From a virus, in the IMG/VR virus record IMGVR_UViG_3300045988_054550, positions 1 to 64,000 of that record: a stretch of 64,000 nt of DNA; one strand, 5' to 3'. Both the position numbers and the translations under genes were made by a program. The stretch's first letter is position 1. Each line of letters starts with the position of its first letter. This document shows positions 1,289 to 2,204 of this stretch, piece after piece. A model generated the notes under the pieces. The model worked only from the letters and a program-made list of their open reading frames with translations, ran no database searches and had not been told where the DNA came from.

Positions 1289-1436
1289 AACGCTGTTCTT
1301 TTTCTGGTGTCCTGCATCCGCTCCGGGCGGCGGTGGTTCGTGACCCGTGCAGGACTTCTCCGGGGCTTGCGTCCTGGTTTGATGCACATTGACAATTATA
1401 TATAGCTGTATTGGCTTCTGTTCGACGTTTTAACGG

Positions 1437-1495
1437 CTTTTATCGTGATTCTGGTATATTTTATCACAGTCATATAAAATCACCTTAAAACGTCA
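1437..1495. repeat. twin repeat copy A with promoter-like core
   Basis: TTTTATCGTGATTCTGGTATATTTTATCAC aligns with 1729-1758. On the minus strand it reads TGaTAAAAT (extended -10-like). Confidence 0.55.
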
Positions 1496-1515
1496 AATAC
1501 AAATTGATAACAGGG

Positions 1516-1544
1516 ATTGACGGCAGAACGCAACAGGGTTATTA
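1516..1544 (+). promoter_or_regulatory. sigma-70-like promoter (TTGACG-17-TATTAT)
   Basis: -35 at 1516-1521, 17-nt spacer, -10 at 1539-1544; no ORF downstream. Confidence 0.45.
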
Positions 1545-1550
1545 TTACTG

Positions 1551-1652
1551 TGTATAGTTGCGCGGACACTTCGCCCGGTCTGGTCTTTATACATCCGGAC
1601 TGCGCGAAGCTATGCGGACTTTGTTTGTGATCGCTCCGGCGGTCTTATTTCT
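1551..1652 (+). ncRNA. candidate ~100-nt small RNA
   Basis: Lies between the promoter above and a terminator-like hairpin GATCGC-TCCG-GCGGTC (1628-1643) with a TTATTTCTG tail. Internal CTTCGC/GCGAAG and CCGG/CCGG pairings. Confidence 0.35.
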
Positions 1653-1728
1653 GTACGCTTTTAGGCGTTTTGCTTAGACGGTTGTGCCTTAAATACTCAT
1701 ATAACGCCGTATTTGGATTTTTGAGCGC

Positions 1729-1790
1729 GTTTTATGTGATTTCTGTATATTTTACCATAACTGCGTAAAAACGTTTTTAAACGCATTTTA
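1729..1790. repeat. twin repeat copy B with promoter-like core
   Basis: TTTTATGTGATTTCTGTATATTTTACCAT. On the minus strand it reads TGgTAAAAT (extended -10-like). Confidence 0.55.
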
Positions 1791-2097
1791 CAGCGTTGCA
1801 CTAGAATTAGCTTTGGTTCTGGCGGTGTCTGGCGCTGGCTTTACGCTTCCGTAGATGCTCCCGGCCTGCTTCTGGGTTATCCCCGGCGGGTTGTGCTATT
1901 CCAGATCGTGCAGGGTGGTGGGGCTTTCACGGGTTCCTGTAGTGGTCCGTTGCTAATCGGCTGGCGGTTGCCGGGACCGTCCTGAGGTGGGATAAGGGCA
2001 CCAAGGGAATGCACGACAAGTCAGAAGCAGCATCAAAACCGGGTCGGTTTGAACTGGGAAAATCTGAAAAAAAATCGCAGAAATCTGAAACTAATTT

Positions 2098-2111
2098 AGA
2101 CCTGCGACTTT
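2098..2111. repeat. direct repeat copy 2 (GACCTGCGACTTTT)
   Basis: Identical to 1-14. TCGCAG (2074-2079) pairs with CTGCGA (2101-2106), flanked by an A run and a T run. Marks the switch from GC-rich to AT-rich sequence. Confidence 0.6.
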
Positions 2112-2204
2112 TTTATTTTTGTGCATTCTGTATATAATTTTCTATAACGTAGCTCGGCGTGATGTAAATTTTTCACTTCATCACATTCAATTCATCTTTT
2201 CCAG

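Follow-up and report, generated by a model that had tools for sequence, protein, structure and literature searches.

A probable small RNA locus in a conserved non-coding region at the attachment end of human-gut temperate phages

The stretch of DNA analysed here, hereafter the window, comprises positions 1 to 64,000 (64,000 nt) of the IMG/VR virus record IMGVR_UViG_3300045988_054550 and belongs to a temperate, siphovirus-like phage from a clade with genomes of about 75 kb. Near its left end lies a region of 916 nt (1289–2204) that a preliminary description had singled out as free of open reading frames (ORFs) of 60 aa or more, and the ORF list of the window agrees. It is the longest gap of this kind in the window, the next two measuring 667 and 503 nt. 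Both flanks are coding, as had also been claimed: three small plus-strand ORFs, the last at 905–1288, lie to the left, and a minus-strand DUF4417 gene (2205–2957, with a promoter-like site at 3009–2980) lies to the right. The plus-strand ORF at 905–1288 is followed by an intrinsic terminator, T1, placed by a terminator scan at 1279–1299 on the plus strand. T1 forms the left edge of a conserved non-coding block, with homology between phages restarting at about 1275 in loci whose upstream gene is a different one. Region 1289–2204 is probably a prophage small RNA (sRNA) or other non-coding RNA locus, whose product would most likely be a small regulatory RNA made from a promoter–terminator slot in its right-hand part.

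Homologues were collected by scanning viral and metagenome collections, which yielded about 80 distinct copies in related temperate gut phages of about 75 kb; counts of motifs per copy refer to 79 distinct homologues. The block 1275–2204 is collinear and of near-constant length in most of them, and the span 1275–2300 measures about 1040 nt in most of the 44 distinct loci of the non-coding type (A-type) retrieved in the first scan. Identity to the window is 85–98% over 1289–1800, 61–84% over 1800–2010 and 89–98% over 2011–2204. Among 25 loci in which both flanking genes are collinear, non-coding diversity was 0.128 overall, ranging from 0.03 in the terminator at 2068–2114 to 0.195 in 1901–2010. 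Third codon positions of the two flanking genes gave 0.307 and 0.290, and their first and second positions 0.09–0.14. The most variable part of the region thus has about 60% of third-position diversity, and the remainder about 40%. By this measure, the region is constrained about as strongly as non-synonymous sites.

The constraint does not take the form expected of a gene. Substitutions lack 3-base periodicity (ratio at most 1.5, vs about 2.2 in the 3' end of the DUF4417 gene), no frame is common to the homologues, in which stop-free stretches change frame from locus to locus, and gene callers made no prediction in the region on independent contigs. Conceptual translations matched no family in Pfam, PHROGs, NCBIfam or PADLOC, and small-ORF products looked up on public contigs, with transcript-sized ones sought, gave nothing on record. 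Low diversity relative to third positions, combined with the lack of periodicity, indicates that 1289–2204 is functional and non-coding; the earlier view of it as non-coding was upheld, and purifying selection acts on it. An intact coding frame in homologues, raised earlier as a possible sign that this copy is degraded, was not found: homologues of the same type have no consistent frame, and the gene present in sister phages is unrelated to the sequence and not an intact version of it. A blastn search of the region against GenBank phages returned no match. A profile of the region searched with nhmmer likewise found nothing in the more distant DUF4417 phages L120 and L121 or in the rest of the window, and its absence from those two phages suggests that the element is clade-specific. 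In one relative (L008, ~7555–9192), a transposase of 438 aa, read from the sequence and IS110-family-looking, is inserted at the position equivalent to ~1390 of the window, beside a conserved TTGACA (1389–1394).

The right-hand part of the region is bounded by two near-invariant elements. The first is P2, a plus-strand sigma-A-type promoter (TTGACG-17-TATTAT, 1517–1545) whose hexamers and spacing are conserved in 79/79 distinct copies and from which transcription would start near 1552. The second is T4 (2068–2114), a two-tier bidirectional intrinsic terminator with a U-run, which serves both the plus-strand cassette and the convergent DUF4417 gene and is better conserved than any other element of the locus. 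What lies between them comes in two kinds. The cargo is non-coding and 375–560 nt long in 63 of the 79 homologues, including the window, and of the gene type, 900–1000 nt long, in the other 16 (B-type loci). In these, the plus-strand segment 1560–2051 (cargo A, its start at 1560 or 1620 depending on the locus) is replaced by a gene for a 259-aa protein that begins with AAAGGGAGA-N7-ATG about 30–90 nt after P2 and ends just before T4. Loci of the L010 type keep the hairpin at 1569–1609 as a 5' untranslated region (UTR) element of this gene. The protein (L021 ~7137–7916, minus strand of that locus, and 15 further loci) has a CxxC...C motif and a C-terminal helicase-associated (HA) domain, and in our own reading its N-terminal region looks AP2-like; a PADLOC scan of it gave no match.

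In sister phages, the invariant P2 precedes and drives a protein gene, which fixes the strand and function of this promoter. We read 1517–2114 as a plus-strand promoter–terminator slot of the moron type, of which the window carries the commoner, RNA-only cargo. The sRNA-like transcription unit proposed in the preliminary description is thereby retained, with at least one such unit on the plus strand. A third architecture, in L159 (3300–3470 and 4790–5210), keeps only 2045–2171, which indicates that the terminator and the adjoining AT-rich box belong with the DUF4417 side. The upstream region of this relative is different: next to a resolvase-like gene it has a GC-rich stretch poor in ORFs, and an Rfam scan of this region detected tRNAs only. 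L159 also has an extra ORF of the 111-aa type with its own promoter between that box and DUF4417, partly decayed there and intact in L043.

Three small observations concern T4 itself. Its inner stem at 2095–2100 reads TTTAGA in the window and TTCAGA in all 40 other aligned copies, leaving one mismatch here. The word AAATCTGAAA occurs twice (2060–2069 and 2081–2090), permitting an alternative pairing with 2095–2100. Finally, an exact 14-nt repeat, GACCTGCGACTTTT, is found at 1–14 and at 2099–2112, whereas chance would give ~0.02 such matches in 3.4 kb; the copy at 1–14 is part of a 69-aa ORF cut off by the start of the window, and the other coincides with the 3' arm of the bidirectional terminator and its tail.

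A transcript from P2 would carry a 5' hairpin of 15 bp with one mismatch (1569–1609, plus strand), followed by two weak terminator-like hairpins that together span 1629–1675 on the same strand, T2 (1629–1644 plus UUAUUUCUGU) and T3 (1655–1668 plus UUUUG). The promoter and the hairpin with a T-rich tail were already recognized in the preliminary description, whose positions were 1 nt off. The 5' hairpin and T2/T3 make up an sRNA-like unit of about 100–125 nt, within which 1635–1654 is 98% identical, and the stretch 1611–1660 is 90–98% identical, though it lies downstream of P2. Over 1552–1672, the folding z score averaged across 12 homologues was −2.55 on the plus strand vs −1.21 on the minus strand. 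In the 5' hairpin and the terminator-like hairpin, 97% of alignment cells are paired, and the changes are nearly all one-sided, passing through G·U.

Just after T1, the plus strand has two GC hairpins (1309–1377; identity 88–98%), formed by 1309–1316/1348–1355, with an inner stem at 1324–1327/1344–1347, and by 1360–1365/1372–1377. The first corresponds to the long GC stem GTCCTGCA/TGCAGGAC reported earlier, which is real and displaced by 2 nt. Variant cells in these stems (G·T 47 vs A·C 6, and G·T 47 vs A·C 7) favour the plus strand. Over eight local hairpins (within 1309–1377, 1569–1644 and 2075–2107), G·T states outnumber A·C states by 308 to 35, whereas in unpaired columns the transitions that make G·T are the rarer type (979 vs 1453 cells). 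Such an excess of G·T in stems is what selection on a plus-strand RNA predicts, and a plus-strand reading of the GC hairpins after T1 as well is supported mainly by this asymmetry. A hairpin at 1425–1493 (z −5.3) was rejected, being present only in the window's copy and not conserved. A search for an RNA–RNA duplex between the plus-strand RNA and the DUF4417 3' UTR gave nothing better than shuffled sequences.

The cargo includes a plus-strand segment rich in G+C and G+T (1800–2010), the least conserved part of the region, in which many relatives have deletions of differing size and whose GC content of 0.60 is preserved across the clade. The region had been called GC-rich as a whole; this holds for 1801–2000 (0.60), the rest having 0.36–0.50. 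The segment shows no stability beyond its composition (mean z −0.86 on the plus and −1.39 on the minus strand), the RNAalifold consensus of 1795–2125 reaches only −16 kcal/mol with one covarying pair and no conserved fold, and a column scan found no conserved long-range helices. Calling the region structured is thus justified where the sRNA-like unit and the GC hairpins lie, but not in the GC-rich block, which is no stabler than shuffles.

Three AT-rich boxes, with extended -10 readings on either strand, accompany these elements. Box 1 (TTTTATCGTGATTCTGGTATATTTTATCA, 1438–1467) contains TTTTAY half-sites spaced by 21 nt, and each of its strands offers a -10-like hexamer; it is conserved, and the hairpin around it is not. 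Box 2 occupies 1730–1757, and box 3 (2115–2148) lies in the DUF4417 3' UTR and travels with the terminator in L159. The local alignment of boxes 1 and 2 scores 34, against 16 ± 2.3 for shuffles, none of 1000 of which reaches 34; for box 3, 1 of 1000 shuffles reaches its alignment score. Their consensus is TTTTWT-GTGMW-TTCTG(G)TATATWWT, each box having two TTTTAY-like half-sites 20–21 nt apart. The twin repeats of about 60 nt claimed earlier therefore survive as a core of about 30 nt (1438–1467 vs 1730–1757); in relatives, blastn similarity extends over 45–72 nt at 72–78% identity. The extended -10 promoter seen earlier on the minus strand of both copies (TGnTAAAAT) is present in the window, but the TG of box 1 is found in only 51/79 homologues, vs 68/79 for TGnTATATT on the plus strand, and box 2 has lost its minus-strand TG in about 8 loci.

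The boxes are candidates for promoter elements or regulator binding sites. We take the spacing of their half-sites to resemble the layout recognized by LytTR regulators, and the phage encodes an orphan LytTR response regulator (28140–28955, plus strand). Its neighbours in a plus-strand accessory island (with 26982–27991) are a small membrane protein and an ORF resembling a lipoprotein; a histidine kinase was not noticed in its vicinity. A link between this regulator and the half-sites may exist, and we mention it as a lead only.

Taken together, these data are best accounted for by a conserved non-coding accessory module that would carry an RNA-only cassette at the tRNA-Glu attachment end in a clade of ~75-kb phages of human-gut Firmicutes, a reading to which we give about an even chance. 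The plus-strand order of the cassette would be P2, the 5' hairpin, the weak terminators, about 400 nt of G+U-rich sequence and T4. P2 and T4 bracket no ORF here, so the product is expected to be RNA, most likely an sRNA of about 100–125 nt ending at T2/T3 together with a read-through form of about 560 nt ending at 2114. Such an RNA would be made from the prophage, like the products of other morons, and may act in trans by base-pairing through the near-invariant 1611–1660. The three boxes and the GC hairpins after T1 would then be cis elements that gate or insulate the cassette, as regulator sites, promoter elements or insulating terminators. The location fits, the module lying just inside attL, after DUF4417, in a zone where the genes are small and cassette-like and their joints conserved. 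A more specific version is speculative and rather improbable as a whole: the P2 sRNA, at about 110 nt, and the ~560-nt form would be a phage non-coding RNA not described before and interchangeable in role with the HA-domain protein, which is of a DNA-binding type (for example, in superinfection immunity, anti-defence or host reprogramming), and the boxes would be operators of a phage regulator, the LytTR protein being the candidate, coupling the RNA to a signal.

Several results weigh against the RNA-only cassette. Compensatory covariation, which the preliminary description had suggested seeking in related phages, was detected nowhere, whether by comparing all columns against all on both strands, at local and long range, or by RNAalifold on four sub-alignments, and shuffles equalled the observed values; the test has low power, because the homologues are only 5–22% divergent. 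With internal terminators as weak as T2 and T3, the ends of the transcript are uncertain. The RNA unit is equalled in conservation by about 230 nt upstream of P2 and by the three boxes, and an sRNA gene alone is insufficient to account for this. The GC-rich two-fifths have no conserved fold and tolerate deletions of ~50–170 nt in several relatives. Nor does the region belong to a known RNA family. All 4227 Rfam 15 models were run at gathering score, and in E-value mode on 1100–3400 and five relatives; the only gathering match in the window was a tRNA (63701–63772), and E-value mode gave only terminator-like chance matches (STnc40 and P36 among them). Membership in ROOL, GOLLD, raiA or any other Rfam family, proposed earlier as a possibility, is thus unsupported in both the window and the relatives.

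The strongest rival to the RNA-only cassette is a purely cis-acting DNA region, made up of terminators, insulating hairpins and regulator boxes between convergent genes, the P2 RNA being an unimportant by-product of an 'empty' cassette. It owes this rank to conservation that resides in the sequence itself, with no covariation, and to the boxes, of which three are conserved, each with its paired half-sites, and for which the RNA reading offers no explanation. T1 and T4, moreover, form the edges of the block, T4 being its most conserved element. We nevertheless consider it on the unlikely side, since the G·U bias of the plus-strand stems and the plus-only folding z are properties of RNA (or of a single-stranded plus-strand nucleic acid) and not of duplex DNA, the 1611–1660 stretch is nearly invariant despite its position downstream of the promoter, and the GC content of 1800–2010 is maintained across the clade. 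Decay of protein-coding accessory genes, leaving only promoter and terminators functional, would explain why the slot holds a gene in sister phages, why variation is greatest and deletions are numerous in the GC-rich part, and why stop-free stretches occur in several frames. The sequence bears no similarity to the B-type gene, however, and has no protein-family match in any frame and no residual periodicity; its constraint is too strong for a remnant even where it is most variable, and its length is held in most A-type loci. This explanation is distinctly unlikely. A type I toxin–antitoxin locus is a poorer candidate still. It would have the P2 transcript encode the peptide MR(A/T)LFVIAPAVLFLYAFRRF and a minus-strand antisense antitoxin start from box 2 (TGGTAAAAT). 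The coding part is a doubtful hydrophobic mini-ORF of 21 aa (MRTLFVIAPAVLFLYAFRRFA, 1612–1677, plus strand) that overlaps T2. Conservation covers its first 20 aa, which make up a transmembrane-like helix that is basic at its ends, and the peptide shows some resemblance to the 'IAP' core of Fst/SprA1-type toxins. It follows a highly structured 5' leader, the minus-strand extended -10 lies 70 nt downstream, and the locus is at a prophage end. Against this, the ATG is AGG in two loci, codon 2 is frameshifted in one, and the tail occurs in two frames through a 1-nt indel. There is no usable Shine–Dalgarno sequence, and the 'VIAPAV' codons coincide with the T2 terminator hairpin. A hand tally from the alignment gave about 5 synonymous vs about 12 non-synonymous variable sites, with no sign of selection at the protein level. 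The mini-ORF has no toxin match in Pfam or NCBIfam (E up to 10) and none in PHROGs, no Rfam antitoxin RNA was found, and in about 8 loci box 2 lacks the minus-strand TG.

Two further explanations fare worse than these. A DNA site for replication, partition or packaging (an origin, a centromere or a pac/cos site) could account for a long conserved non-coding region with AT-rich boxes beside a GC-rich block. In phages, moreover, fusions of ParB-like folds with DUF4417 domains are frequent (bioRxiv 10.1101/2025.10.10.680097); the DUF4417 protein here matched the DUF4417 domain only, with no ParB domain. Tandem repeats and iterons are lacking (0 arrays in TRF at a score of at least 30), words shared with the replisome-organiser gene (5937–6758) occur only at chance level, and over-represented k-mers and Chi-like words in the region reflect composition only. 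More than 50 kb of the window separates the region from the terminase and portal genes, and 490 nt, about half of the region, are dispensable in B-type phages, being swapped for a gene in 16/79 relatives. The earlier suggestion of a replication locus is thus not supported, the replication genes lying 3 kb away beyond the integrase, and we regard any such site as very improbable. A large RNA with a complex fold of the ROOL/GOLLD/raiA kind over ~1300–2114 would suit the size of ~0.8 kb, the phage location and a G+U-rich plus strand with local hairpins. It is the least probable explanation of all, given that no covariance model matched at gathering score or by E-value, conserved long-range helices are missing, the consensus of 1795–2125 is weak and large internal deletions are tolerated.

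The surroundings of the region are those of a prophage end. Beyond the DUF4417 gene, the minus strand carries the attP core (3169–3193) and an integrase gene (3310–4539, with an integrase domain), followed by genes for a DnaC-like loader and a replisome organiser (5195–6758); a CI-like repressor is encoded at 25453–25809, and an SPP1-type portal gene (54724–56214) and a terminase gene (56705–58447) lie far to the right. The attP core is identical to the 3' 25 nt of the host tRNA-Glu(CTC) gene, as established by two integrated copies (L114 and L116; the attachment gene is at 5718–5790 of L114), in which the order is host ppx, ppk, tRNA-Glu(CTC), attL, DUF4417, the non-coding region and the small ORFs. 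In a lysogen, 1289–2204 would lie about 1–1.9 kb inside the left end of the prophage, just within attL. The claim that accessory cargo sits near attP is therefore supported. A tmRNA gene as attachment site was rejected, because the weak Rfam match at 3177–3193 reflects T-arm similarity only and the integrated copies show tRNA-Glu(CTC). Similar weak tRNA/tmRNA T-arm-like pieces (Rfam E 0.16) are found in the variable small-ORF zone of two relatives (L001 8221–8237, L039 8225–8241) and may be remnants of secondary attachment sites. The joints between the small plus-strand ORFs (119–206 and 407–494), each consisting of a terminator and a ribosome-binding site, are 86–99% conserved though the intervening ORFs differ, which suggests cassette exchange by recombination at the joints. 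In another relative (L079, 6001–6747), the DUF4417 gene is broken by two in-frame stops, and the adjoining non-coding region is still 78% identical to that of the window.

The relatives come from human faecal assemblies, and the closest resemblance of the portal and DUF4417 proteins, being to phages of Roseburia, Dorea, Clostridium and Streptococcus, points to human-gut Firmicutes as the likely hosts. A 21-mer scan of genome contigs for a host produced only a chance match in an Atopobium genome.

Morons, a concept developed for HK97 and lambda, are autonomous promoter–gene–terminator cassettes inserted between conserved genes of temperate phages. The locus resembles them in having its own invariant promoter, judged by sequence and conservation, and its own near-invariant terminator, in lying in an accessory zone by the attachment site and in having a cargo that is swapped among relatives while the flanks stay collinear. 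It differs in that this cargo has neither ORF nor periodicity, whereas classic morons are protein genes. Prophage sRNAs such as DicF and IpeX of Escherichia coli cryptic prophages and the Spr RNAs of Staphylococcus aureus islands offer a second comparison, with their promoter, 5' hairpin and intrinsic terminator. The unit described here shares their size class (~100–125 nt), architecture, prophage accessory location and strand-specific hairpins, but it has no sequence or model similarity to DicF, IpeX or Spr and belongs to a gut-Firmicute host. Type I toxin–antitoxin loci are carried by prophages and plasmids of Firmicutes, as in par/Fst of pAD1 and bsrG/SR4 of SPbeta. They have in common with this locus convergent transcription onto a bidirectional terminator, direct repeats, a small hydrophobic ORF after a structured leader and a position at a prophage end; here, in contrast, the start and frame of the ORF are not conserved, it lacks a Shine–Dalgarno sequence, and no toxin or antitoxin family was matched. 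With ROOL, GOLLD and raiA, the locus shares a long ORF-free segment in a Firmicute (pro)phage, and it departs from them in having no covariance-model match and no conserved global fold.

Since prophage sRNAs and morons are both established, no new category is opened by this locus. It is nonetheless unusual in that RNA and protein would be alternative cargos under one invariant promoter, in the size of its constrained non-coding block and in its triple box. To our knowledge, almost no phage sRNAs have been characterized in gut Firmicutes, and the recovery of the clade in many human-gut assemblies indicates a wide distribution in gut data sets. Should the RNA prove real, a slot with RNA or protein as alternative cargo would constitute a natural experiment on prophage RNAs in gut Firmicutes.

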